IMG/VR virus record: IMGVR_UViG_3300020050_012089
DNA length: 56,673 nt
Direction: 5' to 3' (one strand)
From: a virus
The notes below the pieces were generated by a model. The model did no database searches and had not been told where the DNA came from. It was given only the letters and a program-made list of their open reading frames with translations. A program made the position numbers and the translations under genes. Shown piece by piece: positions 35,300 to 54,503 of this stretch. How positions within the stretch are numbered: the first letter of the stretch is position 1; each line of letters begins with the position of its first letter.

Positions 35300-35342
35300 C
35301 TGTAACTCCTGTAGAATAAAGTAAATTTGTTATGTTTAGGGC

Positions 35343-41591: not shown

Positions 41592-41618
41592 TTATCGGAT
41601 TTAGGCCCTAATACTTTA
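41592..41618 (-). promoter_or_regulatory. sigma-28 (FliA)-type promoter: TAAAGTAT-N11-TCCGATAA
   Basis: Matches TAAAGTTT-N11-GCCGATAA. It lies 48 nt upstream of the protease ATG and is followed by the stem-loop GTAGGC-N7-GCCTAC at 41567..41585. Confidence 0.55.
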
Positions 41619-41912
41619 ATTTTTATTGTAACCTATAGATAAGTTTATAAAACCATTTTTATCGTGGCCTCTATATGTATCTAATTGAGATTGAAGTTGG
41701 TCAATCTTAGCTTGCATAAGTTTAACCACAAGCTGATGCCCATTTCTAACTTTAAACTTTTTAAATAGTGCAGTTTTATGAAACTTTACAGTGCAAACGG
41801 CGATGCACAAAATATCAGAAATTTCTTTATTGCCTTTTCCTTCTAATATTAGTGCAATAATTCTCTGCTTACTTCTTTGCTCAAAGGCTTGAACTGGCTT
41901 TGTCTTACTCAT
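41616..41912 (-). CDS. stand-alone GerE/LuxR-type HTH regulator (98 aa)
   Basis: LILEGKGNKEISDILCIAVCTVKFHKTALFKKFKVRN matches the LuxR C-terminal HTH; no receiver or ligand domain. Confidence 0.7.
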   Translation of the reverse strand: MSKTKPVQAFEQRSKQRIIALILEGKGNKEISDILCIAVCTVKFHKTALFKKFKVRNGHQLVVKLMQAKIDQLQSQLDTYRGHDKNGFINLSIGYNKN

Positions 41913-41950
41913 TTTAAAGTCCCCCCGAACTTTTGCCCCACTTAAGGAGC

Positions 41951-41975
41951 TTAAAATTGGCCTATCCTTAGGCCC
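41951..41975 (-). promoter_or_regulatory. shared intergenic element GGGCCTAAGGATAGGCCAATTTTAA (hairpin GGCCT-N6-AGGCC)
   Basis: Near-identical copy at 43019..43043. Both lie between a stop codon and the next gene and are followed by TTCGGGGGG SD regions. Confidence 0.35.
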
Positions 41976-41982
41976 TTAAAAC

Positions 41983-42993
41983 TTATGCTTCGATTCTCTT
42001 CTTAGCTATTTCTGTATACTCTTCATTCAACTCTATACCAATAAAATTGTAACCTAGATTCTTTGCTGCTACTCCAGTGCTTCCGCTTCCCATAAATGGG
42101 TCTAAAGTAGTGCCTCCGGCTGGAGTTACAAGGCGTATGAGGTACTCCATTAGCTTGATTGGTTTAACGGTTGGATGCACATTGCCCTCACCACGTTCAC
42201 GCTTACTTGCTTTTGCTACATAGAAGAAACGAGATGCCCCGCCAGAGTCCCCTGCTCTATTAGCTGTTTCAAACTCACACCCAGATTTAAAATTTACTGT
42301 TTCAGTGTGTTTTCGCTTGTATGGCTTTAGGTCTCCGCTTTTTAAAACCCCACTCTGCTCATTAAGCATTTCAGCTGCAACTTCATCCAAAATTATATTT
42401 GCTGGCCAGCGACCTTCTACTGTCTTACCCTCGGCATCCTGATTGAATCCGCTTCCTGAATGCTCTGGCCTTCCCATTGATTTGCTGATTACTGTACTCG
42501 CAGGCGGGTTAAATCTTTTCTCAGTCCCAATCCTACTCTCATCAATATTGATTGCACCTGTTCCATACTTAAGAACATTTGCAGCTAATGTTAAACCTTT
42601 CTCTAAAGGCTTTCTTGCAACGCATATAGGTTCATTTGCTGGTTTTAAAGCTGAGCCCCAGCCTTTATTTTCATCTTTAAGGTTCATACTTTTTGGAAAG
42701 CCTGAACCGTACAACCACTGAATCTGGTCACGAATCTCAAAACCAGCGTCTTCAATATTAACAACTAAGCGGTGGTATGTGCGAGTGCCGCCGAAACAAA
42801 GAAGGTGGCCTCCAGGCTTCAACACTCTTAGTGCTTGTCTCCAAATGTCCACGCTAGGTACTTCATAATCCCATTTCTTGCCCATAAATGATAGGCCATA
42901 TGGAGCATCAGTTACAATACTGTCTACACTATTAGCTTCTAGGTTAGCTAAAACTAAAAGACTATCACCTGTTAATAAATTTATTGTACTCAT
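41983..42993 (-). CDS. DNA methyltransferase (N6-adenine/N4-cytosine, beta class), orphan
   Basis: Motif IV DSIVTDAPYG near the N-terminus and motif I LDPFMGSGSTGVAA near the C-terminus. No adjacent restriction gene recognised. Confidence 0.9.
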   Translation of the reverse strand: MSTINLLTGDSLLVLANLEANSVDSIVTDAPYGLSFMGKKWDYEVPSVDIWRQALRVLKPGGHLLCFGGTRTYHRLVVNIEDAGFEIRDQIQWLYGSGFPKSMNLKDENKGWGSALKPANEPICVARKPLEKGLTLAANVLKYGTGAINIDESRIGTEKRFNPPASTVISKSMGRPEHSGSGFNQDAEGKTVEGRWPANIILDEVAAEMLNEQSGVLKSGDLKPYKRKHTETVNFKSGCEFETANRAGDSGGASRFFYVAKASKRERGEGNVHPTVKPIKLMEYLIRLVTPAGGTTLDPFMGSGSTGVAAKNLGYNFIGIELNEEYTEIAKKRIEA

Positions 42994-43018
42994 ACTTCCC
43001 CCCGAAAGTTTATTATTT

Positions 43019-43043
43019 ATAAAATTGGCCCATCCTTAGGCCC
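43019..43043 (-). promoter_or_regulatory. shared intergenic element GGGCCTAAGGATGGGCCAATTTTAT
   Basis: Second copy of the 41951..41975 element, upstream of the methyltransferase gene. Confidence 0.35.
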
Positions 43044-43051
43044 AAAACATA

Positions 43052-43477
43052 CTAATTAATTGTACCATCACTGTTTAGTGTAAAGTGACAAGCTTGTGAG
43101 TCTGTAGTTACATACGACCCAGGACTAAGCACTGCTAGGAACTGCAAATTGCCTGAAGCAAAGTGTGCAATCACCTGACCGTTTGCTAAGCGAAGTAGCA
43201 CCTCATCAAATTGTCCTGGAGCATCGCCACACGGGTCCAAAATTTCTGTTACAGTAAATGCAGTTGGTGGAGCATTTTGACCGTCTGCACCATTAGTCCC
43301 ATTAAGTATTAAAGTACTTGTCCCATCTTGACACGTAATTACAGCGCCGTTAGAAGCTTGAGCAACTGAGCATGAGCTGCCGTCTTTACCATCACTGCCA
43401 TTAAACCCTCTATCGCCCTTCTTAGCGCAAGCGCTTAATGCAAGAATGGATAAACTTAGTAACAATAAATTTTTCAT
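43052..43477 (-). CDS. lipoprotein with short collagen-like Gly-X-Y repeats
   Basis: Signal peptide plus lipobox LSAC; GDRGFNGSDGKDGSS and GTNGADGQN triplets. Confidence 0.7.
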   Translation of the reverse strand: MKNLLLLSLSILALSACAKKGDRGFNGSDGKDGSSCSVAQASNGAVITCQDGTSTLILNGTNGADGQNAPPTAFTVTEILDPCGDAPGQFDEVLLRLANGQVIAHFASGNLQFLAVLSPGSYVTTDSQACHFTLNSDGTIN

Positions 43478-43521
43478 ATTTCTATCCTTTGTTTTTTGTG
43501 CCTTAATCGGCTACATTAATC

Positions 43522-43548
43522 TTATCGGGCTTATTCCCAGAAACTTTA
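43522..43548 (-). promoter_or_regulatory. sigma-28 (FliA)-type promoter: TAAAGTTT-N11-CCCGATAA
   Basis: Exact -35 octamer, 7/8 match in the -10 octamer, 45 nt upstream of the lipoprotein ATG. Confidence 0.6.
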
Positions 43549-43556
43549 ACCTTATT

Positions 43557-43883
43557 TTAAAAATCATATCTATAATTAAGTGTAACTATATTAGGCTCAT
43601 CGTCCTTAAACTTCCATTCTATGGTTGCATTTTTAGTTACCGGAACTCTAAACTTTTTAGCACCTAAACTTCCGTACGCCAAAACTGCAAATAAAGCGGC
43701 TTCCGGTTCATTTCGGTACATATACTTACCAACCTGCTTTGCATCCCTCTTTACCTGCACATTATGAGATAGGTAGGCTTTTGTAAGCTGGTTACATTCC
43801 ACGTCATATAAGCAAAATGTCAATACAAGCATTTCTAACATAGGCCCCTGGTATAGAATACAAAAACATAGCACTAAATACAA
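43557..43883 (-). CDS. hypothetical protein ending in an outer-membrane beta-signal-like motif
   Basis: C-terminus VTLNYRYDF (alternating hydrophobics, terminal Phe). Start codon uncertain (TTG at 43883 or internal ATG). Confidence 0.4.
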   Translation of the reverse strand: MYLVLCFCILYQGPMLEMLVLTFCLYDVECNQLTKAYLSHNVQVKRDAKQVGKYMYRNEPEAALFAVLAYGSLGAKKFRVPVTKNATIEWKFKDDEPNIVTLNYRYDF

Positions 43884-43903
43884 GAAAATTCGGACACATG
43901 TAC

Positions 43904-44530
43904 CTATTTGACACGCTTAAGTTGAACAGAAAAGCCGACCCCATGCCTCTGATAATCTGGCACTTTATATATACTTGATGGGTATAATTTATGCGAAGCC
44001 CAGAAGCGATACATAGTTTGTCCTACTTTAAATTCGTACCTAAAGCTCCAATATGGGCCCATAGTGCAGAAATACCAGAAAGGCACCTTACCATCCTTAG
44101 TTCCATCATTTCCATCTTCCAGTGCTGCTAAAGTTTCATACGGAATGTTATCTTTATCAGTTCCAAAGCTGGCCTTAAACTTTACTTTTTTAGGGTCCAC
44201 GATTGGTGCAAAGAGGGGTACAAATCTTAAATTATTTGCAGGATTTCTATAGTACCAATACAATTGTCTAAACCATAAAGGGTGATTAGGAAACTCTGCT
44301 GAAGCACTTAAACCATCCTCTTCATTACCAAAAATCCAAAATAATTTCCATGTCCAGGCGCTTATTTTCTTAGGGTTGCCTTGACCGTCTTTAAAATATT
44401 TAGAATCTCTAATATGATAAGCTTTAAAAGAAATAGCTATAGGCACCAGCACAAATCCTAAAAAAGACAACACAGTCTTCACTATTAGCGTTGTAATTGA
44501 TAGAGGTAAAAATAATAATATATTAAACAT
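43904..44530 (-). CDS. membrane protein (208 aa)
   Basis: N-terminal hydrophobic helices; Trp/Tyr-rich body (WYYRNPANNLRF); no family confidently recognised. Confidence 0.5.
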   Translation of the reverse strand: MFNILLFLPLSITTLIVKTVLSFLGFVLVPIAISFKAYHIRDSKYFKDGQGNPKKISAWTWKLFWIFGNEEDGLSASAEFPNHPLWFRQLYWYYRNPANNLRFVPLFAPIVDPKKVKFKASFGTDKDNIPYETLAALEDGNDGTKDGKVPFWYFCTMGPYWSFRYEFKVGQTMYRFWASHKLYPSSIYKVPDYQRHGVGFSVQLKRVK

Positions 44531-44654
44531 ATTTCCAAGCCTTTCTTTTTATAATTTTATATAAAGTTGTTCTAACAATGCCAAATCTTTTACATAAAGA
44601 CATGGTGCCCTCTTTTCCAAATAACTTACGTATTTCTTGGGTCAATTTCATCAT
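44523..44654 (-). CDS. small HTH-like protein (43 aa)
   Basis: MSLCKRFGIVRTTLYKIIKRKAW resembles a short Hin/sigma-r4-like HTH. Below the track threshold; overlaps the next start by 8 nt. Confidence 0.3.
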   Translation of the reverse strand: MMKLTQEIRKLFGKEGTMSLCKRFGIVRTTLYKIIKRKAWKYV

Positions 44655-44729
44655 GACCTAACATCGGACTTTTACATATTTCACACATAACTCTTCCAGC
44701 GCTTTGTAACCTGTTTGAATAATTGAATC

Positions 44730-45014
44730 TCATCCTACTTCTCCCTCGCCTCTAAATTTTTGCTTCAATTTTCCAACGTGAAAGCTAAAAGCAAGTGAGG
44801 CCATAAACTCTACTGATTCTGGCTTTAATGGCTTAACTAATTTCTCTACCGCTTTGAAATCGCAAGGAGGGTCAAGCTCTGAGCGTTCAAGCTTAGATAA
44901 GTTTCCGAAATCCATTTTCAAAAGCTCTCCACATTTTCTAAGCGTCAGTTCTTTTTCGATTCTAAAATGTTTAAGCCATCCTCCGAAAGAATAGTCTCTT
45001 GTAATGTCGCTCAC
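44730..45014 (-). CDS. XRE-family HTH protein
   Basis: LKHFRIEKELTLRKCGELLKMDFGNLSKLERSE fits the HTH_3 pattern. Confidence 0.55.
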   Translation of the reverse strand: MSDITRDYSFGGWLKHFRIEKELTLRKCGELLKMDFGNLSKLERSELDPPCDFKAVEKLVKPLKPESVEFMASLAFSFHVGKLKQKFRGEGEVG

Positions 45015-45283
45015 ACCTTCTCCTGTTCCAGCGCTGCGAGTGCAAGTTTGATTTCAAAATATGAATGAGAGTCAATTCTTACGCATCCTTTTATTTCACG
45101 AACGCTTGTATTTTTTAATGCCTCCACAAGCTTTGCGTATTTTTCTTGTAAGTCGAGCAGGGCTTGTATTTCTATGGTGTGGATTCCTATAAATAATCTT
45201 GTTTCGCCATGTGAAGCAACAAAATCTCTACCTCTCTTTTCTCCTTGAGAAATCCAAAATTCTTTATACTTCTGCTCGCTCAT
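45011..45283 (-). CDS. hypothetical protein (90 aa)
   Basis: ORF with a 4-nt overlap with the XRE gene. Confidence 0.45.
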   Translation of the reverse strand: MSEQKYKEFWISQGEKRGRDFVASHGETRLFIGIHTIEIQALLDLQEKYAKLVEALKNTSVREIKGCVRIDSHSYFEIKLALAALEQEKV

Positions 45284-45380
45284 CTCTTGTCCCTCTTATA
45301 TTGTTTGTATGCATAATAAAAACCAGGTGATTCAATAACTAGTGCAACAACAATGAGAATGCACCAAACCTTAAGCTCGC

Positions 45381-45551
45381 TCATGGATTAGGCTCCTGTT
45401 TAAGTTTCATAAATTTACCGCAATACTGGCATTTGTTATGTGGATTATGTCCATGAGTAGGACAGTCATCGTCTGGCTCTAGTGCCGAAATTGAGCAATA
45501 GCATCCTGACGGAAGTTCACATTTATCATTTGGATGTACTTTCTTTTTCAC
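45381..45551 (-). CDS. small Cys/His-rich protein (56 aa)
   Basis: GTGA-coupled start; CxxxxxCxC...C.TH.H...CQYC. Below the track threshold. A further 34-aa membrane ORF (45280..45384) is ATGA-coupled on both sides. Confidence 0.3.
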   Translation of the reverse strand: MKKKVHPNDKCELPSGCYCSISALEPDDDCPTHGHNPHNKCQYCGKFMKLKQEPNP

Positions 45552-45781
45552 TTAACCACTCCACTCACAAGCGTCTCTACTTGCTCTATGGCTTGTCTGG
45601 CTCTAGTTCCGGCAGGATATTCAACAACAAAACATGGTACTACATCTGGTCCACCAGCATTTTCTCTGTCGCCGTAGTAAATATAAGAATGATGATTTTT
45701 TCTATCGCATCTTTGCCGTAGAGCGCGCCATGTATTATAAAGAGGGTGAGATTTAACTTTATTTGTTTTTTGTGTACTCAT
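45548..45781 (-). CDS. hypothetical protein with an N-terminal motif seen in phage HNH/AP2-type endonucleases, no catalytic part
   Basis: HPLYNTWRALRQRCDRKNHHSYIYYG resembles the common phage Y..W..M..RC......Y..YG motif, but the rest diverges. Confidence 0.4.
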   Translation of the reverse strand: MSTQKTNKVKSHPLYNTWRALRQRCDRKNHHSYIYYGDRENAGGPDVVPCFVVEYPAGTRARQAIEQVETLVSGVVK

Positions 45782-45827
45782 CCAATACCTCCATTGTTAT
45801 CTTGCTTGGGCGGGGTTAGGTTTGGGT

Positions 45828-46004
45828 TCATAATTCTCCTAAATAAACTAATTCGTATTTTGATATGTGGTGTTCATCGCCAAATTTTAAATACTCTTTA
45901 TGCAGGTCATAGTGGTCCCACTCAAAGCCAACAAAGCATTCATCAACAACTGTTTGAAAAACAATTATGTCAATACTCGGAATGTAGAATGCAAATTGTC
46001 TCAC
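45828..46004 (-). CDS. hypothetical protein (58 aa); possible paralog of 1740..1943
   Basis: GTG 46004 overlaps the upstream TGA (GTGA). The track start at 46070 lies inside the upstream gene. QFAFY...SKYE..YLGEL. Confidence 0.4.
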   Translation of the reverse strand: MRQFAFYIPSIDIIVFQTVVDECFVGFEWDHYDLHKEYLKFGDEHHISKYELVYLGEL

Positions 46005-46312
46005 TTCTCTCTCCCAATTTTCCAAGCTTCGTACGCCTCGATAGCGTGTCTTGCCACTAAACAATCGCATCCGTGTAAATTATCATTCTTAAAGCCCTCT
46101 TCATGAGAACCATAGTGAGAGTTGCATGCTCTACAATACTTTGGGTAATATTTTAACGCCGAAACCAAAGCCTGCGCCTGTTCTTCTAGCTCGGTGAGTT
46201 TGGATGATTCAACAACTTCAATACCTTTAAACTTTCTCGTTTCATTTTCTTTCGCTACATAATCTAGGCCAAGAGTGTCGTTGAATTTTTCATCGTTAAT
46301 ATGGTATTTCAT
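46001..46312 (-). CDS. hypothetical protein (103 aa)
   Basis: ORF in the coupled small-gene string; Cys/His cluster CRACNSHYGSH...HGCDC. Confidence 0.5.
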   Translation of the reverse strand: MKYHINDEKFNDTLGLDYVAKENETRKFKGIEVVESSKLTELEEQAQALVSALKYYPKYCRACNSHYGSHEEGFKNDNLHGCDCLVARHAIEAYEAWKIGREK

Positions 46313-46614
46313 TCTGCCTCCTTCTTTTTAGGCTCAAAGTTTGAGATTGCGTCTATAATTCTCTGGGCTTCTTTTGGCATCATGGAAAAGTTGTTCTTTG
46401 TGTATTGAAGTATGATTAACACCTCAGCTACCGACGGAATTTTAGCGACATCACTTGGGCTTAGTAGGTGGAGGTTTTGTTTAAATAATGTAGTTAGCTT
46501 TTCTGCAGCATTGTTGTAATCCATACTTCCACAGCATCCACAGTTTATGTCCTCATCTACTAACATTTCATGAATCTTCTGCTCTAAAGTTTTGTTACTC
46601 ATGATTCGTCCCAT
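46309..46614 (-). CDS. hypothetical protein (101 aa)
   Basis: ORF with a 4-nt overlap downstream; contains CGCCG. Confidence 0.5.
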   Translation of the reverse strand: MGRIMSNKTLEQKIHEMLVDEDINCGCCGSMDYNNAAEKLTTLFKQNLHLLSPSDVAKIPSVAEVLIILQYTKNNFSMMPKEAQRIIDAISNFEPKKKEAE

Positions 46615-46865
46615 CCAGATTCAATTCTTTTAATAAGTTTTTCATTTTCAATATCTATTTTTGCTTTCTCTAAAGCTGAGTCTCTCGTCTTTGGTGGTTC
46701 TCTTAATTGCCAATTAACTGGCCCCCAAAGTAAGCGACCACTATCTTGTTCTTTTTTTAACTCTTTAGGACTAAACCACATTCCTTGATAATTAGAGTAA
46801 AACCATAATTTTTCTTTGTTGGCTTTTTCAAATAACGGCTCTAGTAATTTCTTAACTTCACTCAT
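46599..46865 (-). CDS. hypothetical protein (88 aa)
   Basis: ORF in the coupled string. Confidence 0.5.
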   Translation of the reverse strand: MSEVKKLLEPLFEKANKEKLWFYSNYQGMWFSPKELKKEQDSGRLLWGPVNWQLREPPKTRDSALEKAKIDIENEKLIKRIESGWDES

Positions 46866-47044
46866 GATTGGGTCTCCTTCTTTTCCAAAGGTTGGGGTTT
46901 AAGATTTAATTTCTCTTTGATTCTTAGCTCTAAAAACTCTTCGTAAATTAAAGTCACCATTTGATAGTCAGTAATTGTATTTTCGTATCGGAACAGCAAC
47001 CTTAGTAATTTTAATGGACTCATGATTGGGTTTTCATCTCGCAT
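46862..47044 (-). CDS. hypothetical protein (60 aa)
   Basis: ORF in the coupled string. Confidence 0.4.
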   Translation of the reverse strand: MRDENPIMSPLKLLRLLFRYENTITDYQMVTLIYEEFLELRIKEKLNLKPQPLEKKETQS

Positions 47045-47711
47045 AAGCTTCTCCGTTAATCATACTTACTTGTTCTAAAGCATCAGGCCATAGTTTCAAT
47101 AACTCTAGCTCTTCTTTTTCCATGTGGTGATAGCCTAAGTTCCGCATATCTCTTGGTCTAATTTCCATTCCAATACTTTTTAAGAATGCTAAAATTGGAT
47201 GAATATACTTAGGATGAATTGCTCCGTTTCCTTTTCCTTTAATTTGCACAATCTCATTACTTCTTTTTTGCACCTCAAAAGTAGCGTGAGGCATATTATT
47301 TTTATCTCTGTAAGAATAGATATGAACATTTTCACTTGGAACATAACCGCCAACACAATGAGACATTAGAAAGCCTTCGCGTTTGCAGGCTTTAGGATTT
47401 ATAAGTTTTACAATCTTTGTACCGTCCATAAAATCATGAATAGTTTCAGTGTCACAATCATCGTCCTCTAAATTCTTGCCTTTTTTCTGATTAGCCTTAG
47501 ACCACTCAGCGGCTTTTCTTTTTGCATCAACAAAACTCATTTTGAGAAATCGTTTTGGTGCAGATTTAGAATTAAAATAATCAACAATGTGTTCTAGCTC
47601 TGAATCAGTAGCTTTCTTTAATTTAATTGCCTTAGCTCCAGTAGTGGTAAGCCAAGATATAGTTTCTTGATTAGAATTTAGTAAAACTGCATAACTTAAT
47701 ATTTCGCTCAT
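47034..47711 (-). CDS. PcfJ-like protein
   Basis: REGFLMSHCVGGY...HATFEV...IVQIKGKGN matches the PcfJ-like pattern. ATG 47711 has a GAGGTG SD and an ATGA overlap with the repeat-protein stop. Confidence 0.55.
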   Translation of the reverse strand: MSEILSYAVLLNSNQETISWLTTTGAKAIKLKKATDSELEHIVDYFNSKSAPKRFLKMSFVDAKRKAAEWSKANQKKGKNLEDDDCDTETIHDFMDGTKIVKLINPKACKREGFLMSHCVGGYVPSENVHIYSYRDKNNMPHATFEVQKRSNEIVQIKGKGNGAIHPKYIHPILAFLKSIGMEIRPRDMRNLGYHHMEKEELELLKLWPDALEQVSMINGEAYAR

Positions 47712-48040
47712 GACTTCACCTCTGCGCCTGCATGAGTCCAAGTAGCAGGATTTTTATTGACGTCGCCGTAGCCGTAGCCGTAGCCGTAGCCGTAGCCGTT
47801 GCCGTAGCCGTAGCCGTTGCCGTAGCCGTAGCCGTTGCCGTCGCCGTCGCCGTCGCCGTCGCCGTAGCCGTAGCCGTTGCCGTAGCCGTAGCCGTCGCCG
47901 TAGCCGTTGCCGTAGCCGTAGCCGTTGCCGTCGCCGTTGCCGTAGCCGTAGCCGTTGCCGTCGCCGTCGCCGTCGCCGTCGCGAGGAATGCTTTTCAGCC
48001 TCCCTATAAAGATTAGCTTTTCCACGGCTCTTTTCTCCAT
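47708..48040 (-). CDS. Gly-(Tyr/Asp/Asn) dipeptide-repeat protein (110 aa)
   Basis: 72 of 110 residues are 36 consecutive X-Gly dipeptides (18 Tyr, 10 Asp, 8 Asn). Its stop is ATGA-coupled to the next gene. Start codon uncertain. Confidence 0.5.
   Translation of the reverse strand: MEKRAVEKLIFIGRLKSIPRDGDGDGDGNGYGYGNGDGNGYGYGNGYGDGYGYGNGYGYGDGDGDGDGNGYGYGNGYGYGNGYGYGYGYGYGDVNKNPATWTHAGAEVKS
47765..47980 (-). repeat. 36 tandem hexanucleotide units (plus strand GCCGTN; minus strand NACGGC)
   Basis: Only one position of the hexamer varies (A/C/T on the plus strand, never G). Locally GC-rich in an AT-rich genome. Confidence 0.95.
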
Positions 48041-48309
48041 GCTTTAAGTGCTTCGGGCGTCATTTCCAAAACCGCAGTAACTCCTTTAATAGTAGCCTTT
48101 GGAGCCGCAGGACTAATTCTACAATCTTTCGTTGGGCCGTGTGCCGCAAGACCTACAACGCCTCTAACATCTGCCGACCAATAAACAGCCATGCGAATTT
48201 CTTCTGCTTCCATTGTTTCAAGGGCCGCATCTTTGGGGTTTATGAATGCCATAAATACTCCACGCTTATCTTTATCCGTAGTGATAACTACAGGAATTTT
48301 ATCTTTCAT
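48013..48309 (-). CDS. hypothetical protein (98 aa)
   Basis: ORF with AAAGGAG SD; RGVF...VYWSADVRGVVGLAAHGP looks like a conserved phage family that I cannot name with confidence. Confidence 0.5.
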   Translation of the reverse strand: MKDKIPVVITTDKDKRGVFMAFINPKDAALETMEAEEIRMAVYWSADVRGVVGLAAHGPTKDCRISPAAPKATIKGVTAVLEMTPEALKAWRKEPWKS

Positions 48310-48525
48310 TTACTTTTCTCCTTTAATTATTTTCATCTCTATACTTCTAAAATCTCTAGTTTTTCTAAGTTTAAATCTCTAACTACTTGCAATTACTAAA
48401 ATCAAGCTTCTGAGCAGGGCTTTGACCTTGTAATCTATCTATCGAAGCACCCAATGGGTTCTTATCAAAAACAAGGGACCTTTGCTTACACCGCTGCTCA
48501 AAAACTTGAAACGGTTAATCTATTT

Positions 48526-48603
48526 ATATATAAATGGGGCTACATAGTGAAAAAGGCGTCCCTATACCATCACTGGCTCTCAGTATGAGCCCCCATTTAT
48601 ATA
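48526..48603 (-). repeat. imperfect 15-bp inverted repeat enclosing 48 nt (candidate RNA stem-loop)
   Basis: ATATATAAATGGGGC ... GCCCCCATTTATATA (one bulged C) in an ORF-free stretch. Confidence 0.6.
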
Positions 48604-48760
48604 CTACTTTATATTTATACTTATGTAAAGTTTTTTTGCTTAAACTGTACCATTTTGAGATTACCCCAGGCTACTGGATACAGCAGGCTGAATGCGAGCA
48701 CTAGTCGGACGGGAGTTCGGAATCTAGGTCACCCATTTTGTGCCCAATATATGCTGCATA

Positions 48761-48922
48761 TCACTGGCCACCTCTTCCAGGCTTTTTAGCTAAACGAAAA
48801 GCGAGGTCTAGCTGCTGCCTTAATCGGGTCTCTAATTCTCTTTTCTTGATTGCTTGAATTTCAGGCGAAGCCTGTGGCAGGACAAGGCCCAAAGGTTTTT
48901 TAATTGAAAAGAAGTTCCACAT
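48761..48922 (-). CDS. small hypothetical protein (53 aa)
   Basis: First ORF after the sigma-28-type promoter at 48959..48985; GTGAGG SD; below the track threshold. Confidence 0.3.
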   Translation of the reverse strand: MWNFFSIKKPLGLVLPQASPEIQAIKKRELETRLRQQLDLAFRLAKKPGRGGQ

Positions 48923-48958
48923 AAGTTACCTCACTTATAAACATATCTTACATTAAAC

Positions 48959-48985
48959 TTATCGGATAGGCAAGCAGGAACTTTA
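48959..48985 (-). promoter_or_regulatory. sigma-28 (FliA)-type promoter: TAAAGTTC-N11-TCCGATAA
   Basis: Bipartite match with exact N11 spacing, 37 nt upstream of ATG 48922. Confidence 0.55.
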
Positions 48986-49066
48986 GAGTTATTTGCATTT
49001 AAGGCCACTTTTTTTGCGACTTAGGCCCATGCTCGGTTAAGTAGAGGTCACGAAGCCGTCTCACGA

Positions 49067-49270
49067 TTAATCCCCCCAGTCTTTTTGTGTGTCTAAGTAG
49101 CCGTCCATAAAGCTTTGAAAAGAGTCTAAGGCTAAGCTTGGGTTACTATTGCCTGGCTCAGCCACTCCACAAGGACAAGTCCATTTGCCTGTACGGAAAC
49201 CTTTCTCGTTTACTGTATATTGCATTTCCATGTTACTGTTGCAACTACCGCATTGTAAGCTTGGGCCCAT
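49067..49270 (-). CDS. small Cys-rich protein (67 aa)
   Basis: CGSC...CPC pattern. ATG 49270 preferred over the track's GTG 49282. Confidence 0.45.
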   Translation of the reverse strand: MGPSLQCGSCNSNMEMQYTVNEKGFRTGKWTCPCGVAEPGNSNPSLALDSFQSFMDGYLDTQKDWGD

Positions 49271-49271
49271 G

Positions 49272-49391
49272 TTAAAGCCCACACCCTACAGAGTGCAATA
49301 AACTGTACAACCCTAAGCACATTAAAAGCACAACAATAATATACAGAGTTACGCCGGGAGTTGTTTCTCCAGCTTGAGTTAATCTTTCCAT
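49272..49391 (-). CDS. small membrane peptide (39 aa)
   Basis: Hydrophobic core LYIIVVLLMCLGLYSLL; its start overlaps the upstream gene end; below the track threshold. Confidence 0.25.
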   Translation of the reverse strand: MERLTQAGETTPGVTLYIIVVLLMCLGLYSLLHSVGCGL

Positions 49392-49624
49392 GTTACTGCT
49401 CCCCCTAATTGCTCCACTAGGTATGCTACTGCACTCCTACCTTCTTCTAAGCTTATATAATCTTCATTGAAACTAATTTGATTGCCCATGATTGAAATAG
49501 TACGTAGGTCTTTAAAAGCACAAAAGATAGGATACGGAGTCTCTACCTCAGTACCTATATCTTGAATTGCTTTATACTTTTCAAATGCTGTTAGTGGTTT
49601 CTTATTCTTCTTAGAACTGGACAT
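49379..49624 (-). CDS. hypothetical protein (81 aa)
   Basis: ATG 49624 is preceded by a GGAGGAG SD; the track start at 49636 supplies that SD. Confidence 0.45.
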   Translation of the reverse strand: MSSSKKNKKPLTAFEKYKAIQDIGTEVETPYPIFCAFKDLRTISIMGNQISFNEDYISLEEGRSAVAYLVEQLGGAVTWKD

Positions 49625-50018
49625 AAACTCCTCCATAAACTTCCTTCTCTGTATTCACTGAGGCACTTACACCTACCTGCATCTTAAATAGGTTAAGTAG
49701 GGGTGGGCTGTCTAAGCCTAAGCTGTAAACCTCACCTGCGCTAAACTGCTTACTTAAACTTAATCGCGTCCCTAATCTTCTGTTCTCTTGTATTTTAGTG
49801 CTTTCCGAACTAATGGTGCTTTTGTCTTTCTCTATAGTCTGCTCTTTAGTAGTGCCGTCAGCATAAACTATACGAGTTATAATTTTAACAGTGTCCTTAC
49901 TCTCTTTATACTTCACTACTTCTTTCACAGTCTCTGGCTTGCTATAAAACCCTGCTCCGAAGCTTAGGCCTAGCAGAAGGATGCCGCCTATAATCTTTTG
50001 CTTAGTTTCTTTTTGCAT
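49611..50018 (-). CDS. envelope protein with N-terminal membrane anchor/signal and beta-signal-like C-terminus
   Basis: N-terminal IIGGILLLGLSFGAGF; C-terminal VYGGVYVQF (terminal Phe, alternating hydrophobics). Confidence 0.45.
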   Translation of the reverse strand: MQKETKQKIIGGILLLGLSFGAGFYSKPETVKEVVKYKESKDTVKIITRIVYADGTTKEQTIEKDKSTISSESTKIQENRRLGTRLSLSKQFSAGEVYSLGLDSPPLLNLFKMQVGVSASVNTEKEVYGGVYVQF

Positions 50019-50058
50019 GTTTAATATCCCTCACCCTCTACATAAGTAGTTTTATTAT

Positions 50059-50271
50059 TCATACTTCGTCCTCCCACTCATTGATATCATAGCCGTATTC
50101 TCCTGTGCCTCTCATATAAGTATTTTCAGACACTCTTCTAGTTGGAGGTAGCATGCCATTAGTTTCTAAGGCTAGGAGTAGGTTGCTACTAAGTTCTTTA
50201 AGTGTTATAGTGTCACTTAATTGTATCCTAAGCTCTCTTTCTAATATGGATAGCATCTCACTACGTTTCAT
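50059..50271 (-). CDS. hypothetical protein; paralog of 1945..2172
   Basis: See 1945..2172. Confidence 0.5.
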   Translation of the reverse strand: MKRSEMLSILERELRIQLSDTITLKELSSNLLLALETNGMLPPTRRVSENTYMRGTGEYGYDINEWEDEV

Positions 50272-50273
50272 GC

Positions 50274-50447
50274 TTAAGCTCCTTCACTCTTGTCTGCACA
50301 TTGCTTCATAGGTTCCTGTTCTACACAAGGTTCAATCTTTATAAGGTTCAGTGTACAGGCAGATGCTAAGGCCATAATCAATAACAGTGTAAGTATCACT
50401 AGCAGTGGCCTCAACATATCCCTAAATATTTCTTTAAGTAGTCTCAT
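50274..50447 (-). CDS. small putative lipoprotein (57 aa)
   Basis: ATGA-coupled start; signal-like LLVILTLLLIMALASAC with a non-canonical lipobox; below the track threshold. Confidence 0.35.
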   Translation of the reverse strand: MRLLKEIFRDMLRPLLVILTLLLIMALASACTLNLIKIEPCVEQEPMKQCADKSEGA

Positions 50448-51079
50448 GCCTCACCCCCGACTGCATCCTCAGCAGCATTTAGCAGCTCCTGATATTCTAA
50501 CCCTTCTGGGCTTTCTTTATTCCACTTTTTAGCTTCTTTTATAAACTTATTCACTACTGCGAAAACTACTATAGTACTGAAGCTTTTACTTTCGCTGTAT
50601 GTCTTATTCCACAGCTTTATAATTTGTCTGTAACTTTTACCTTCAACGTATCTTTGGCAAATATAGCGATTCCTAATATCTGCTGCTTCTCCGTTATCTA
50701 TATCTAGTATGCCGTAGCTTTGATTGTGTGTCAAGAAATTAGAAAGTAAATTATAGAAATGTAGCGTTTGACTAGACTGTAGTCTATACTGCTTCTTAAC
50801 ATAAGCTTCATTCTCACCGCCCTTGAACATGCCTATGTCTACTGCTCCTGTAGTTTTGCATGTATACTCAAGGTCATTGAATCCCTCGTCTTTAAGCTTT
50901 CCGTACCATTCATTTTGTAGTTTTGTAAATTCTTTTGTTTTTCTGTCTACAAGTTGGTTTTTACTTTGCCACGATTTAAGTTCCTTGTGCCCTTTTCTGC
51001 CGCCCATGATGTTTACCTTTGATGTACGTTGTGTCTCATATTGAGACTTATGTTTAACTTTTTCTTTACTTAAGCTCAC
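50444..51079 (-). CDS. first gene of the minus arm; protein with a sigma region-4-like HTH
   Basis: RYICQRYVEGKSYRQIIKLW resembles sigma r4/GerE-type HTH, but no sigma region 2. Start ambiguous (GTG 51079 or ATG 51007). Confidence 0.45.
   Translation of the reverse strand: MSLSKEKVKHKSQYETQRTSKVNIMGGRKGHKELKSWQSKNQLVDRKTKEFTKLQNEWYGKLKDEGFNDLEYTCKTTGAVDIGMFKGGENEAYVKKQYRLQSSQTLHFYNLLSNFLTHNQSYGILDIDNGEAADIRNRYICQRYVEGKSYRQIIKLWNKTYSESKSFSTIVVFAVVNKFIKEAKKWNKESPEGLEYQELLNAAEDAVGGEA
51027..51047. promoter_or_regulatory. operator-like site CGTTGTGTCTCATATTGAGAC containing perfect palindrome GTCTCA-N3-TGAGAC
   Basis: A second, near-identical copy lies 290 bp away at 51317..51337. Confidence 0.5.
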
Positions 51080-51160
51080 TCTTAAGGTATTCTGAAGTGT
51101 GGCTTATAAATACAAGTGTACCACTACGGCACACCAGCAGCACCTATTATGTTACATAAA

Positions 51161-51204
51161 CTGTACTTAAGTAGCATATTAAGTTTACCGCTGTACTTAG
51201 GTAG
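51161..51204. repeat. direct repeat CTGTACTTA(A/G)GTAG x2, 30-nt period
   Basis: Copies at 51161..51174 and 51191..51204 in the divergent control region. Confidence 0.6.
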
Positions 51205-51219
51205 AGTACCTTAATCCGG

Positions 51220-51306
51220 TCCCTATCTTTGTTGCTTTCCTTTTTCCTCACCCATTACTATGTGTGTCTCCCTATCTTCGTTGCTTTCCGATTGTCCGAT
51301 TACTAT
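51220..51306. repeat. two tandem ~49-nt units sharing TCCCTATCTT(T/C)GTTGCTTTCC and ATTACTAT
   Basis: 21-mers at 51220..51240 and 51269..51289 differ at one base; each is followed by ATTACTAT. Confidence 0.7.
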
Positions 51307-51316
51307 CGCACAAGTC

Positions 51317-51337
51317 CGTTGTGTCTCAATATGAGAT
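51317..51337. promoter_or_regulatory. operator-like site CGTTGTGTCTCAATATGAGAT (second copy)
   Basis: Identical to 51027..51047 apart from the central three bases (ATA versus TAT) and the final base. Confidence 0.5.
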
Positions 51338-51373
51338 TATGGGACACATAAGAATTTATTATAAAGTAACTGC

Positions 51374-51401
51374 TAAAGTTTCCTAAGCAGTATTCCGAAT
51401 A
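51374..51401 (+). promoter_or_regulatory. sigma-28 (FliA)-type promoter variant: TAAAGTTT-N12-TCCGAATA
   Basis: Exact -35 octamer; the -10 has the TA inverted (CCGAATAG versus CCGATAAG) and spacing is one nt longer. Followed by the same GTATATATA as copies C and D. No ORF downstream for ~550 nt. Confidence 0.45.
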
Positions 51402-51949
51402 GTATATATACATAAAAAGAACCACTGCGGGGAGGGGGAGGTGTGTTTATGGTGTTGCGTAAATGTTGCGGTTGTTACTTATGGGGTGCAGCTTAGGAAA
51501 CATAAGCGGTATACTTCTTGATAGATGCAATTTTGGGTCCAATGGAGTACTTGAGAGGTGAGTGAGAAGCTGCCATAGCACGCTTAGGCATCCTCTGGTA
51601 AGAAAGAAAGCACTAAATTCAAGAGAAATTCGGATATAGGATTTGGGTCCCTTTAAGGCTACCTAGGCAATACCTTTGCGGCCATAGGGGGCATGGTTCT
51701 TATTAGGTAGCTGATGGGGTGTTCTCTAGGGAAATCAAGGGGTTAGACGGGTGTGTGGATTGATTTGGGGCAGTGAATGTACTTTTTTGGTACAAATTAT
51801 GTAGCGGAATGGGACGATGGGTTATATTGGCTTTTAAGTGCTATATATTAGCTATCATAACCAATAGGAGTTAGTGAAATTGTTATGCTGAGGCTATTTG
51901 GTAATTGCTGTTTGGCATGAAAAATATATTGTTTATTTTAAAATATTAC
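51402..51949 (+). ncRNA. candidate non-coding transcript or replication-origin region (ORF-free, G-rich, many local stems)
   Basis: No ORF of 60 aa or more in any frame between 51080 and 51978. Flanked by two co-oriented sigma-28-type promoters. Stems include GCTACCTA...TAGGTAGC (51658/51704) and CTTATG...CATAAG. Confidence 0.3.
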
Positions 51950-51976
51950 TAAAGTATACTTAAAAAAGGTCGATAA
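51950..51976 (+). promoter_or_regulatory. sigma-28 (FliA)-type promoter: TAAAGTAT-N11-GTCGATAA
   Basis: 25 nt upstream of ATG 52001, with an AAGGAG SD in between. Confidence 0.55.
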
Positions 51977-52000
51977 GTTTATATAACTAAGGAGCACAAA

Positions 52001-52192
52001 ATGAAATTAACATCTGCAAACTTAATGAAATGGTTAGATAAGAATGATGTAAAAGAAATTTCCTTATTTGATTTGGTAACTAAACTTAAAAGAACTGAGA
52101 ATGTTTCAAAAGAAGACGTTTGTCTATGGGTTAATGAAATGGTTGCACAAAAGAAATGGAACAAGGTTTGTGCTTGGTACAATCTAAAATAA
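52001..52192 (+). CDS. hypothetical early protein (63 aa)
   Basis: First ORF of the plus arm; strong SD. Confidence 0.5.
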   Translation: MKLTSANLMKWLDKNDVKEISLFDLVTKLKRTENVSKEDVCLWVNEMVAQKKWNKVCAWYNLK

Positions 52193-52195
52193 TGC

Positions 52196-52222
52196 TAAAG
52201 TTTCTTGAACAAATGTCGATAA
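52196..52222 (+). promoter_or_regulatory. sigma-28 (FliA)-type promoter: TAAAGTTT-N11-GTCGATAA
   Basis: 23 nt upstream of ATG 52245, with a GTGAGG SD in between. Confidence 0.6.
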
Positions 52223-52244
52223 GTTATATGTAAGTGAGGTAATT

Positions 52245-52499
52245 ATGAGAACTAAAGAATTAAAAGTTAACGGAACTAAAGTGGAAGCAATCTTAATGGC
52301 TGGTGGACCTGGATTTAAAATATACAGCGCTAATTCTCATTTAGTTCTAGTGTTAGGTCGCAAGGTAAATATTATTGATGAAGATTCAATTGATTTCAAA
52401 ACTGTAATGCATTATATTACTTTAAAATATCAATCTGAGTCAGATAGAGAAGATATAAAATCTGCATTTAAAACTTTATTAACTAAATTAGGAGAATAA
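52245..52499 (+). CDS. hypothetical early protein (84 aa)
   Basis: ORF downstream of the promoter at 52196..52222. Confidence 0.5.
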   Translation: MRTKELKVNGTKVEAILMAGGPGFKIYSANSHLVLVLGRKVNIIDEDSIDFKTVMHYITLKYQSESDREDIKSAFKTLLTKLGE

Positions 52500-52501
52500 T
52501 T

Positions 52502-52786
52502 ATGAGCACAACATTAAAAGAATTAAGAGCAAGTTATGGGTGTTATTGTGATACAAACATCAAATGTGAACGATGTTCTAAACTACCAGTTGCACCAATA
52601 CTAGACTATAACCAGATTGAAGACATAGAAGTTGATGGTATAGACTTTAGTGATGCCAATGACTTCTGTGATGCATATATTTGTAGTGCAACATACAAAG
52701 GCAGAGACATGACAGACGAAGAGCTTGATGTATTAAATGAAGACGGCTCATTTGTATACGAATGTATTATTAATAAGATTTACTAG
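52502..52786 (+). CDS. hypothetical early protein (94 aa), acidic and Cys-containing
   Basis: ORF with AGGAGAA SD. Confidence 0.5.
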   Translation: MSTTLKELRASYGCYCDTNIKCERCSKLPVAPILDYNQIEDIEVDGIDFSDANDFCDAYICSATYKGRDMTDEELDVLNEDGSFVYECIINKIY

Positions 52787-52796
52787 GAGAGTTATT

Positions 52797-53168
52797 ATGA
52801 GCTTAAAGCAAGATTATAAATTTAAAGTTAAGTGGGAATCTGGTGAGAATGTTTGCATTAATGTTGATGGAAAATCACATTTTATTTATAAAGCAGGCAT
52901 TAGAGATGAAACTAATCAAGTAGTATCTTGGTACTATCATGATTTATTTAAAAAGATTAAGTTTGTATATTGTGATACTGCTACTAAACAATTTTGGTTG
53001 CCTAGAAATAAGCTGTACAGCAAATTAAAACTAAAACGATTCTATAAGAACAGTAAGATAGACAACAAAGCATTTTTCTTTAAAAGCTACTTTTTATCTT
53101 TAATTGGTATCGAAGTGCCTCAAGATGGTATGAGTGGGCTTTTACCACCTGGAGAGTCTTTGTTCTAA
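52797..53168 (+). CDS. hypothetical early protein (123 aa)
   Basis: ATG 52797 with AGGAG SD; the track start at 52737 overlaps the upstream gene. Confidence 0.45.
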   Translation: MSLKQDYKFKVKWESGENVCINVDGKSHFIYKAGIRDETNQVVSWYYHDLFKKIKFVYCDTATKQFWLPRNKLYSKLKLKRFYKNSKIDNKAFFFKSYFLSLIGIEVPQDGMSGLLPPGESLF

Positions 53169-53192
53169 AGTTTAGGGACTTAAACCCGATAA
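53166..53192 (+). promoter_or_regulatory. sigma-28 (FliA)-type promoter: TAAAGTTT-N11-CCCGATAA
   Basis: The TAA of the -35 element is the stop codon of the upstream gene. It is 28 nt upstream of ATG 53220 and closely similar (4 mismatches over about 40 nt) to the copy at 54477..54503. Confidence 0.6.
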
Positions 53193-53219
53193 GTATATAT
53201 AAGTTACATAGGGGGATTT

Positions 53220-53684
53220 ATGAAACTTACATTAAAAGAACTATGGCCTGTAATATTAATCTATGCTGCATTAGCTATCATTAGCATGGAGGCAAGTGCA
53301 GAAAGTATAGAGTACAAGGACCTTCAGGTTATATTGGAAGTATCAAAAGAGTTTAAGCTTCAACCTGATAAATTATTACGTATAGCTTATGTAGAATCAC
53401 GCTTCAATCATAATGCAATTAGACAAAATAAGAATGGTACTATTGATGTGGGTATGATGCAAATTAACTCAGTGCATTGGACTACTACGTGTAAAGCGTT
53501 TGACATTTTAAAACTTAAAGGTAATGTGCAGTGTGCTGCGAAATTGTTGTCTATGCATAAGTTAAAAGCTTCTACAGATATGTACTGGATAGGTAGATAC
53601 TCTTCTAAGACTCCCAGTATTAAATTTAAGTACTATCAAAAACTACAAGCTGTACCTCCTATAAAAGTGGTATACAATGATTAA
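53220..53684 (+). CDS. secreted lytic transglycosylase (SLT domain)
   Basis: Signal peptide (AALAIISMEASA|E); catalytic-Glu context AYVESRFNHNAI and GMMQINS. Confidence 0.75.
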   Translation: MKLTLKELWPVILIYAALAIISMEASAESIEYKDLQVILEVSKEFKLQPDKLLRIAYVESRFNHNAIRQNKNGTIDVGMMQINSVHWTTTCKAFDILKLKGNVQCAAKLLSMHKLKASTDMYWIGRYSSKTPSIKFKYYQKLQAVPPIKVVYND

Positions 53685-54159
53685 AGTTAAATTAAAACAT
53701 GGAGTAGCTCTATTCGATGACTGTGATAAGAAGTTATTGGATACTTGGAAGATATTTTCTTGGGCTGATAATACAAATAAAACTATAAAACCTTATGTAA
53801 AAACTTGGGTATATATAGGAAACAAAAAAAATAAGGTAATGTATTTCCATAGAATACTAATAAATGCCAAGAATGGAGAAATGGTTGACCACATCAATGG
53901 AAATGGGTTAGACAATAGAAGAAACAATTTGAGAATAGTTAATGCATCTCAGAATGGTATGAATAAAAAATCTAAACTGGGAGTTAGTGGATTTACTGGA
54001 GTAACATTTTGTAAGTGTACTAATCGCTGGAGGGCTTGGATTGAAGCCTATGGATACAAATTATGTATGGGTAGATATAAAACAAAAGAAGAGGCTGCTG
54101 AAGCTAGACATTTTGCTGAAGCGTTTCTTCATGGAGAATACAGTTATGGGCAAAAATAA
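53677..54159 (+). CDS. HNH homing endonuclease with AP2 DNA-binding domain
   Basis: HNH_3-type DHINGNGLDNRRNNLRIVNASQN, followed by AP2-like SGFTGVTF...RWRAWIEAYGYKLCMGRYKTKEEAA. Confidence 0.85.
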   Translation: MIKVKLKHGVALFDDCDKKLLDTWKIFSWADNTNKTIKPYVKTWVYIGNKKNKVMYFHRILINAKNGEMVDHINGNGLDNRRNNLRIVNASQNGMNKKSKLGVSGFTGVTFCKCTNRWRAWIEAYGYKLCMGRYKTKEEAAEARHFAEAFLHGEYSYGQK

Positions 54160-54256
54160 ATACGAAGATATAGCTATAGTGGTTATAATTTTAGCAATTC
54201 TATTTACTATATCAAGATGTACAATAGTCATAGTTAGTGGAGGGAGTAGTTTATGA
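54146..54256 (+). CDS. small membrane peptide (36 aa)
   Basis: GGAGAA SD; hydrophobic IAIVVIILAILFTI; its stop is ATGA-coupled to the next gene. The longer track ORF from 54041 lies inside the HNH gene. Confidence 0.3.
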   Translation: MGKNKYEDIAIVVIILAILFTISRCTIVIVSGGSSL

Positions 54257-54486
54257 ATAGGAATTTAACAGATAGACAATTGCAGTTGCTTGAGATGGCA
54301 CAAAAAGGAATGAAGAATAGAGATATAGCACTAAAACTAGGATTAGCTGAGAAATCTATTAAAACATACTTTGGGCACATATATCAAAGGCTTGGAGTAA
54401 GAAATAAAAAAGAATTACTAAGTATGTATCAATCTGGGACTATGTTAGTACACACTAGAATATTACAAACTAAGATTAAAGTTTAG
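54253..54486 (+). CDS. stand-alone GerE/LuxR-type HTH regulator (77 aa)
   Basis: LTDRQLQLLEMAQKGMKNRDIALKLGLAEKSIKTYFGHIYQRLGVRNKKEL is a canonical LuxR C-terminal HTH. Confidence 0.75.
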   Translation: MNRNLTDRQLQLLEMAQKGMKNRDIALKLGLAEKSIKTYFGHIYQRLGVRNKKELLSMYQSGTMLVHTRILQTKIKV

Positions 54487-54503
54487 GGACCTTAGACCGA
54501 TAA
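54477..54503 (+). promoter_or_regulatory. sigma-28 (FliA)-type promoter: TAAAGTTT-N11-ACCGATAA
   Basis: 31 nt upstream of ATG 54534, with an AGGGGGA SD in between. Confidence 0.6.

Follow-up and report, generated by a model that had tools for sequence, protein, structure and literature searches.

Putative flagellar σ28-type promoters arrayed ahead of early, accessory and replication genes in an uncultured phage genome

What reads a promoter-like motif of the flagellar type when it is repeated through a phage genome? Textbook phages start infection from σ70 promoters, or bring along a polymerase or σ factor of their own. The IMG/VR virus record IMGVR_UViG_3300020050_012089, a stretch of 56,673 bp analyzed here over its whole length and called the window, seems to follow neither course. 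An initial annotation of this DNA noted eight copies of a bipartite motif resembling promoters of the flagellar σ factor σ28 (FliA), and conceived that early phage transcription depends on the σ28 of the host. Here we examine whether the sites are real, what they resemble, where else they occur and which factor could read them.

TAAAGT-N15-CGATAA has seven exact matches on the two strands of the window, and none of 100 dinucleotide-preserving shuffles gave any match (expectation 0.00). When one mismatch is allowed, 0.52 matches are expected in shuffles. The eighth copy, at 51374-51401 (+), has a spacer longer by one base and is marginal by itself (expected 0.10). It is supported by the orthologous sites of the related contig L001, which have the same N12 spacing and a perfect CCGATAA. 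On a weight matrix made from 16 sites, the seven N11 copies score 36-54 bits, and the rest of the window stays below 12 bits on both strands. The eight copies of the initial annotation thus hold up as seven exact ones and a variant, and the weight-matrix scan of both strands singles out the seven N11 copies alone.

All copies lie between genes or across the stop codon of the preceding gene (53166, 54477 and 41618), and all eight are co-oriented with the next gene, as had been claimed. In seven of the eight, the motif ends 23-48 nt ahead of a start codon with a ribosome-binding site (GGAG/GGGG-type), in agreement with the distances and the Shine-Dalgarno sites given before.

The −35 element contains TAAAGT in every copy, within the octamer TAAAGTTT in five, TAAAGTAT in two and TAAAGTTC in one. 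The −10 element is CGATAA in seven copies, preceded by CC in five and by TC in two, and CCGAATA in the remaining one. The octamers are separated by 11 nt in seven copies and by 12 nt in one. Although the half-sites and spacing originally described are correct, the conserved block is in fact longer, comprising an AT-rich stretch, usually a C, TAAAGTTT, N11, nCCGATAAG and then a TATAT-rich stretch. The spacer sequences of the window copies differ completely from one another. Because they have no sequence in common, the copies are not those of a dispersed repeat.

The consensus of E. coli σ28 promoters is TAAAGTTT-n11-GCCGATAA (PMC2859248). The phage consensus, TAAAGTTT-N11-nCCGATAA, matches it in 15 of the 16 positions and has a spacer of equal length. 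The identity covers the whole −35 octamer, the spacer length and seven of the eight −10 positions; the leading G is not conserved. The closeness to the FliA consensus in both half-sites and spacing is therefore as had been stated. Features of the σ28 class are present: a TAAA(GTTT) −35 element, a CGA core at −10, an 11-nt spacer (15 nt from TAAA to GCCGATAA), and co-oriented placement upstream of genes.

Information content lies in the two octamers and is near zero at the positions of the σ70 hexamers. In the region, σ70-like matches are not above shuffles (54 found, 56.9 expected). A stricter scan of the divergent control region yielded no convincing σ70 promoter, and good σ70-type promoters are scarce.

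The sites are distributed on two divergent gene arms, with 0.9 kb of non-coding control region between them. From 52001, the ‘+’ arm extends over the window junction to 9115. It contains small ORFans, an SLT transglycosylase, an HNH endonuclease, a 77-aa LuxR/GerE-type helix-turn-helix protein, a D5-like primase-helicase spanning the junction, a primase-like protein, a PD-(D/E)XK exonuclease and a family-A DNA polymerase (PolA). The ‘−’ arm, which extends from 51079 to 9116, starts with the gene of a protein named p211, followed by many small ORFans, a PcfJ-like protein, a DNA methylase and a 98-aa LuxR/GerE-type protein, then by an S8 peptidase and two ClpP-like proteins, and finally by terminase, portal, capsid, tail, endolysin and holin genes.

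The five ‘+’ sites occupy 3.1 kb at the start of their arm. The final one, at 54477, stands ahead of small genes, the D5-like primase-helicase, the exonuclease and PolA (to 9115), leading into an operon of ~11 kb with replication genes. The three ‘−’ sites head cassettes resembling morons, and the one at 41618 is the last ahead of the structural module. This promoter type is lacking ahead of p211 and the neighboring ‘−’ genes, and in the whole structural/lysis block. The ‘early programme’ to which the sites had been assigned is therefore too narrow a term, as the site at 54477 heads the replication operon, and also too broad, as the first ‘−’ genes from p211 onward have no such promoter.

The identical 121 bp at both ends of the window indicate a closed circular assembly with 56,552 unique bp (G+C ~37%), and so nothing is hidden outside the window ends.

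The motif is conserved in related phages. The IMG/VR contig L001, whose helicase is 91% identical, has seven copies, and L002 and L003 (JGI), which are of the same species as the window, have the same sites. About five copies are present in L004-L011 (helicase 43% identical), and about five in L019 (55.9 kb, 41% G+C, p211 28% identical). The relatives have the same −35 element; at 19 of their sites the spacer is 11 nt long, and at 7 it is 12 nt. As in the window, a copy (4960 in L004) stands ahead of the SLT gene; its spacer is unrelated. In L001, the control region has two tandem N12-spaced copies, at 4604 and 4727, with a perfect CCGATAAG.

Conservation of the motif, proposed at the outset as a check, was thus found in L001, L004 and L019, where spacers and downstream genes are often unrelated. 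The octamers and their spacing are thus under selection, whereas the spacers, the flanking DNA and in many cases the cargo genes vary. Such a motif, kept amid diverging surroundings, is the pattern expected of promoters for one specific holoenzyme. A search for dyad motifs in more distant relatives of higher G+C was uninformative on any replacement for the motif.

The spread of the motif extends well beyond these relatives. Exact TAAAGTTT-N12-CCGATAAG occurs on at least 120 IMG/VR contigs (L034-L153; e.g. L036, L052, L067, L091, L093, L095, L115 and L136), of which, by a rough estimate, chance alone might give a few tens of single matches. About 40 of the 120 loci listed have 2-4 co-oriented TAAAG-N15/16-CCGATA copies within ≤15 kb, against an expectation of ~0.02 further copies per locus. 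A ribosome-binding site and an open reading frame (ORF) of ≥50 codons follow 10-130 nt downstream (median 36 nt) at 64% of 171 sites, compared with 19% of random positions. In a set of 142 unique sites, C-TAAAGTTT and CCGATAAG carry most of the information content, partly through site selection. The motif-bearing contigs listed span 28-55% G+C and 7-137 kb. Many of them have genes in common with the window (PolA, helicase, portal, capsid, ClpP, S8 peptidase or SLT), and others look different.

We then looked for a reader encoded by the phage itself. Some 80 window proteins were covered, namely all non-structural ORFs of ≥95 aa, most smaller ones and the mid-sized ORFs within the late cluster. 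Pfam and/or PHROGs searches found no σ70-family domain, RNA polymerase or FlgM in these proteins. The sole σ-related match is a sub-threshold Sigma70_r4_2 hit inside the 77-aa GerE-type protein. With an approximate E. coli FliA sequence as seed, jackhmmer gave no match below 1e-3 among 8,398 stop-to-stop ORFs, which came from the window and all fetched loci. The earlier statement that the genome has neither a phage RNA polymerase nor a complete σ factor is supported by these searches. An RNA polymerase hidden in the large ORFans (984, 770, 645 and 542 aa) was considered and rejected, as they have no PHROG match and no DxDGD catalytic motif. Four more ORFans had no match in a PDB sequence search.

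The best PDB matches of the 77-aa protein are DNA-binding domains of NarL/FixJ-type response regulators, and by its sequence it is a transcription factor rather than a σ factor. Both GerE-type proteins are absent from L001 and L004, which retain the promoters. The idea that they serve as region 4 of a split σ was rejected, as they are not conserved in relatives and resemble response-regulator DNA-binding domains.

The protein p211 was the best candidate. Its homologues (L001 3823-4308, L004 4101-4616 and L019 10001-10549) always lie beside the divergent control region. They form a widespread, uncharacterized phage protein family, with 331 representatives at 50% identity, in which KEFxKLQxxWYxKL and NFLTHN motifs are conserved. 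Searches with p211 in Pfam, PHROGs and the PDB sequences were negative, and 60 family members have no Pfam domain. The AlphaFold 2 (AF2) model is all-helical, with a predicted local distance difference test (pLDDT) score of 77.5. A Foldseek search of this model against PDB returned no σ factor; the best E-value was 0.8, with insignificant winged-helix/helix-turn-helix matches. Members of the family are found, too, in phages of 58-68% G+C that do not have the motif. With a fold that is not σ-like, no Pfam domain and a family present in motif-less high-G+C phages, p211 was rejected as a cryptic σ or specificity factor. A reader family common to the motif-bearing contigs was likewise not obtained: what they share is PolA, helicase, portal, ClpP, S8 peptidase, SLT and an HExxH moron, none of them σ-like.

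We consider it fairly probable that the sites are true σ28-class promoters, read by the host core RNA polymerase with a host FliA-family σ. This reading follows from the exact match to a cellular consensus, its persistence across compositionally diverse phages, the absence of a detectable phage σ from the complete genome, and the scarcity of σ70 promoters. Because the consensus stays at the cellular FliA form across diverse phages, a conserved cellular reader fits better than many independent phage factors. Several points weigh on the other side. Conservation goes beyond the classical σ28 elements (the G after CCGATAA and the TATAT block), which could mean an additional or different reader. 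Something else must also be read early, because p211 and its neighbors, the first ‘−’ genes, have no such promoter. σ28 is usually scarce and sequestered, an odd choice for a lytic phage. About half of the early proteins of the window are ORFans without fold assignment. Among the motif-bearing contigs, L113 has a small ECF (extracytoplasmic function)-like σ gene at 5566-6129 (+) (Sigma70_r2, 27 bits), and L083 marginally has one at 1-570 (+). Finally, the σ factors of phages phiEco32 and 7-11 are only ~15% identical to each other and easily missed, and one lacks region 4 (PMC8948821).

Because the structural module is SU10/phiEco32-like, and this group has very divergent phage σ factors (PMC8948821), a cryptic phage factor is a live rival and the main one, though we regard it as unlikely. 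The host core polymerase would then work with an unrecognized phage specificity factor (a divergent σ, a split σ or a σ-appropriation pair), and the sites would be middle promoters, turned on after an unrecognized early promoter expresses the factor. Consistent with it are the divergent σ factors of the structural relatives phiEco32 and 7-11, the ECF-like σ genes of L113 and L083, and the many window ORFans. So are p211, which is conserved in the clade, comes first in its arm, lacks a σ28-type promoter and has a C-terminus (RYICQRYVEGKSYRQI) that is ECF region 4-like by eye, and the two LuxR/GerE proteins, which have the fold of σ region 4. On the other hand, the ~80 proteins contain no σ domain, the p211 model and family behave as described above, the GerE proteins are missing from promoter-bearing L001 and L004, and the σ-like proteins of L113 and L083 have no homologue in the window or other loci. 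Moreover, known phage σ factors recognize idiosyncratic motifs (tAATGTAtA; GTAAtg-16-aCTA for those of phiEco32/7-11), not a copy of a cellular consensus (PMC8948821). The window is like phiEco32 and 7-11 in its SU10-type capsid, portal and adaptor, in short motifs repeated through the genome and, as we propose, in the use of host core RNA polymerase. Those phages, however, encode their own σ, use σ70 promoters for early genes and have motifs unrelated to any cellular consensus, whereas in the window no σ gene was detected and the motif is the cellular consensus.

It is rather improbable that the octamers are binding sites of a phage or host activator or repressor (e.g. LuxR/GerE or p211) overlapping weak σ70 promoters, with the TATAT block as their −10 element, much as the MotA box works in T4 middle promoters. 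A TATA(T/A)AAG-like block does lie 1-6 nt after CCGATAAG, some spacers contain TTGAC(A/T) at a −10-compatible distance (L019 952 and 10581, L047, L136), and genes of helix-turn-helix regulators adjoin two sites. Yet TTGAC is within the spacer of only 13 of the 142 unique IMG/VR sites, besides the near-zero information content at σ70 positions, and the motif is retained where the GerE genes are not. The motif is also asymmetric: its octamers are not reverse complements and form no dyad as in LuxR/GerE operators, the inverted repeats bound by LuxR-type dimers. The coincidence of the 11-nt spacing and both octamers with σ28 would be left unexplained. As for dispersed repeat copies or accidental matches without promoter function, which we give practically no weight, the AT-richness of the genome is all that speaks for them. 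Chance is excluded by the shuffles, the differing spacers, the strict intergenic placement and orientation, and the conservation in relatives.

The reading holoenzyme, transcription start sites, timing and motility coupling are what we infer, and under the σ28 reading they would combine as follows. After DNA entry, the host core polymerase with the host flagellar-type σ would bind TAAAGTTT as −35 and nCCGATAA as −10, and would start transcription ~6-10 nt downstream of the −10 element, inside the conserved TATAT-rich block. From the ‘+’ arm promoters, the small early genes, the SLT transglycosylase and the LuxR-type regulator would be expressed, with read-through to the replication operon up to 9115. 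The ‘−’ arm promoters would express the moron-like cassettes, that is, the 141-aa gene with its terminator-like hairpin, the DNA methylase, the second LuxR-type regulator and the S8 peptidase. Productive expression would need σ28 to be present and free of the anti-σ FlgM, which means a flagellated/motile cell. The structural and lysis genes would probably be transcribed by read-through and/or from a second promoter class, perhaps under phage regulators.

How do the sites compare with known systems? T4 middle promoters consist of a MotA box and a σ70 −10 element, with σ appropriation by AsiA. They are like the phage sites in being bipartite with an upstream element other than the σ70 −35 hexamer. 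However, they need phage MotA and AsiA and keep a canonical TATAAT, whereas the window has a CCGATAA −10 element and no MotA- or AsiA-like proteins were found in it.

Enterobacterial class 3 flagellar promoters (PMC2859248) are like the phage sites in the octamers, the 11-nt spacer, the invariant −10 CGA core and the placement directly upstream of genes. The phage sites differ in occurring 8 times per 56 kb and in heading early, accessory and replication genes, not flagellar or chemotaxis genes. They have no fixed leading G in the −10 octamer and also conserve the C before TAAAG, the G after CCGATAA and the TATAT-rich start region; their σ28 dependence is predicted. The attack-phase promoters of Bdellovibrio bacteriovorus, which are FliA-like TTAAG-N16-CCGATA found at 92 of 140 attack-phase start sites (PMC3627812), have nearly the same sequence, and some phage copies read TTAAG. 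They are the main promoter of a whole programme beyond flagellar genes. Their set is a cellular regulon, whereas the phage array is viral.

The nearest precedent is the FliA-dependent promoter in prophage-associated flagellin / csrA-tldR loci (PMC13418256), also a σ28-type promoter on phage-associated DNA. There, a single promoter serves an accessory locus of temperate elements, whereas in the window an array heads early and replication genes. Full-text literature searches found no description of a phage with early or replication genes headed by σ28 promoters. This agrees with the initial remark that no such phage had been described, but the feature is not unique to this phage, being common in IMG/VR contigs.

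We tentatively propose that lytic podovirus-like phages of a large, so far uncultured group, and apparently other phage types in IMG/VR, may have swapped σ70 early promoters for host flagellar-σ promoters, so that their programme would start only in flagellated, motile cells, where FlgM is exported and σ28 is free. What would be new is that the host polymerase serves phage promoters through the flagellar σ, apparently widely among uncultured phages. The motif frequency in IMG/VR suggests an overlooked general class of phage promoters.

If so, the promoters would be a built-in sensor of the host's physiological state. The outcome of infection would depend on the motility state of each cell, with non-motile, biofilm and fliA-off subpopulations as refuges, and phage pressure would be linked with flagellar gene regulation. 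If the phages also adsorb to flagella, receptor and transcription factor would be tied to one cellular state. The promoters could be used as motility-gated parts in synthetic biology. Because the σ28 consensus is conserved across species, the idea can be tested with E. coli or Vibrio σ28 and synthetic fragments, without the natural host.

As to the host, a capsid profile run against GTDB detected homologues on contigs assigned to metagenome-assembled genomes (MAGs) of three phyla, short-contig binning being weak evidence. The capsids are 59% identical in a Bacteriovoracaceae MAG (on a 3.7-kb contig with 37% G+C, like the window), 53% in an Elusimicrobiota MAG and 47% in a Myxococcota MAG. A Bdellovibrio-like host, raised in the initial annotation, is favored by this one 3.7-kb contig and its matching G+C and disfavored by the cultured Bdellovibrio phage phi1422, which has no such motif; it remains speculative. 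FliA promoters as a general trait of Bdellovibrio phages were rejected for the same lack of the motif in phi1422. The appeal of the idea, equally speculative, is that the Bdellovibrio-like attack phase runs on FliA-type promoters and that attack-phase cells would be the ones to meet free phage. With hosts of this kind, the phage programme would start in attack-phase cells. The nearest PolA (39% identical) comes from a Flavobacterium phage. A Bacteroidota host is disfavored because the Shine-Dalgarno sites are strong.

A close cultured relative was not found: megablast of 20 kb was empty, and the terminase, PolA and portal had remote matches only. Because the capsid, portal and adaptor of relatives match Pfam SU10_MCP, SU10_portal and SU10_adaptor, the virion is, on these family matches, distantly of the SU10/phiEco32 podovirus type. 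The genome has about 1,700 relatives by its capsid. No tRNA and no Rfam family were found in the window.

Table 1 Coordinates of the putative promoters and other features (positions in the window unless a contig is named)
Feature	Position	Strand	Remark
Putative σ28-type promoter, variant TAAAGTTT-N12-TCCGAATA	51374-51401	+	In divergent control region; ~540 nt of non-coding G-rich sequence after it
Putative σ28-type promoter TAAAGTAT-N11-GTCGATAA	51950-51976	+	24 nt ahead of ATG at 52001 (63-aa gene)
Putative σ28-type promoter TAAAGTTT-N11-GTCGATAA	52196-52222	+	22 nt ahead of ATG at 52245
Putative σ28-type promoter TAAAGTTT-N11-CCCGATAA	53166-53192	+	Heads SLT transglycosylase, HNH endonuclease and GerE-type gene; overlaps upstream stop
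Putative σ28-type promoter TAAAGTTT-N11-ACCGATAA	54477-54503	+	Overlaps stop of GerE-type gene
Putative σ28-type promoter TAAAGTTC-N11-TCCGATAA	48959-48985	−	36 nt ahead of ATG at 48922
Putative σ28-type promoter TAAAGTTT-N11-CCCGATAA	43522-43548	−	Heads moron-like cassette: 141-aa gene, then hairpin and T-run 43042-43027
Putative σ28-type promoter TAAAGTAT-N11-TCCGATAA	41592-41618	−	Overlaps stop of 98-aa GerE-type gene; heads S8 peptidase gene
Divergent control region	51080-52000		Three direct-repeat pairs and palindrome (candidate operators)
Direct-repeat pairs	51024-51046/51314-51336; 51220-51240/51269-51289; 51161-51174/51191-51204		In or at edge of control region
p211, all-helical putative DNA-binding protein	50444-51079	−	First gene of ‘−’ arm; no σ28-type promoter ahead
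77-aa stand-alone LuxR/GerE-type helix-turn-helix protein	54253-54486	+	Pfam GerE 6e-16, Sigma70_r4_2 1.5e-4
98-aa LuxR/GerE-type helix-turn-helix protein	41616-41912	−	Pfam GerE 2e-12; PDB matches LuxR-type domains
TAAC-N3-TTTACT, intergenic	40401-40413; 39773-39785; 35320-35332; 9613-9625	−	4 found, 0.39 expected
ACAATTTAACTCTC, intergenic, late region	15799-15812; 18064-18077	−	2 found, 0.04 expected
ClpP-like protease genes (two, adjacent)	38038-38568; 37093-37836	−	Upstream of terminase; order kept in capsid-family relatives L012 and L013
Homing-endonuclease-type genes (three: HNH; HNH+NUMOD3; GIY-YIG)	53677-54159 (+); 10196-10786 (−); 12852-13439 (−)		Scattered over genome
HExxH (HELGHC) cargo family	L036 8950-9495; L045 11227-11667; L046 2654-3433; L076 10750-11253; L118 7497-7949; L138 1618-2052; L148 329-892

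It is plausible that the late block has a second promoter class of its own, perhaps governed by the phage helix-turn-helix proteins. Its candidates are the two intergenic patterns listed in Table 1, of which TAAC-N3-TTTACT was derived post hoc from the same sequences, so that its significance is inflated. A TTGACT-N17-TATAAC is also present near 40.5 kb. In the control region, one direct-repeat pair contains the palindrome TCTCATATTGAGA, and the repeat copy at 51024-51046 is within the 5′ end of the p211 ORF. The direct repeats are possibly operators for p211 or the LuxR-type proteins, or else origin iterons.

Two long non-coding stretches lie downstream of σ28-type promoters, at 51405-51945 (+) and 48310-48760 (−). 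The RNA after the 51374 promoter has no Rfam match and no excess folding energy (z = 0.04), and L001 shares a short GTTGCGTAAATGTTGC stretch after its equivalents of this promoter. The ‘−’ stretch is moderately structured (z = −1.96), also with no Rfam match.

Two near-identical short hairpins, GGCCTAAGGAT(G/A)GGCC followed by AATTTTA, are found at 43027-43042 (−) and ~41959-41974 (−). One follows the 141-aa gene and the other the methylase gene, and they resemble terminators that bound moron cassettes. Among the other contigs, a small secreted or lipoprotein-like HExxH (HELGHC) metalloprotease-like family is a recurrent cargo in seven motif-bearing ones, and in L095 a motif copy lies 20 nt ahead of an rIIA gene. 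Incidentally, the ORF at 47708-48040 (−) contains 36.5 copies of a 6-nt tandem repeat, CGTAGC (47761-47979), and codes for a 110-aa Gly/Tyr/Asn/Asp repeat protein with GYGNGD-like units.

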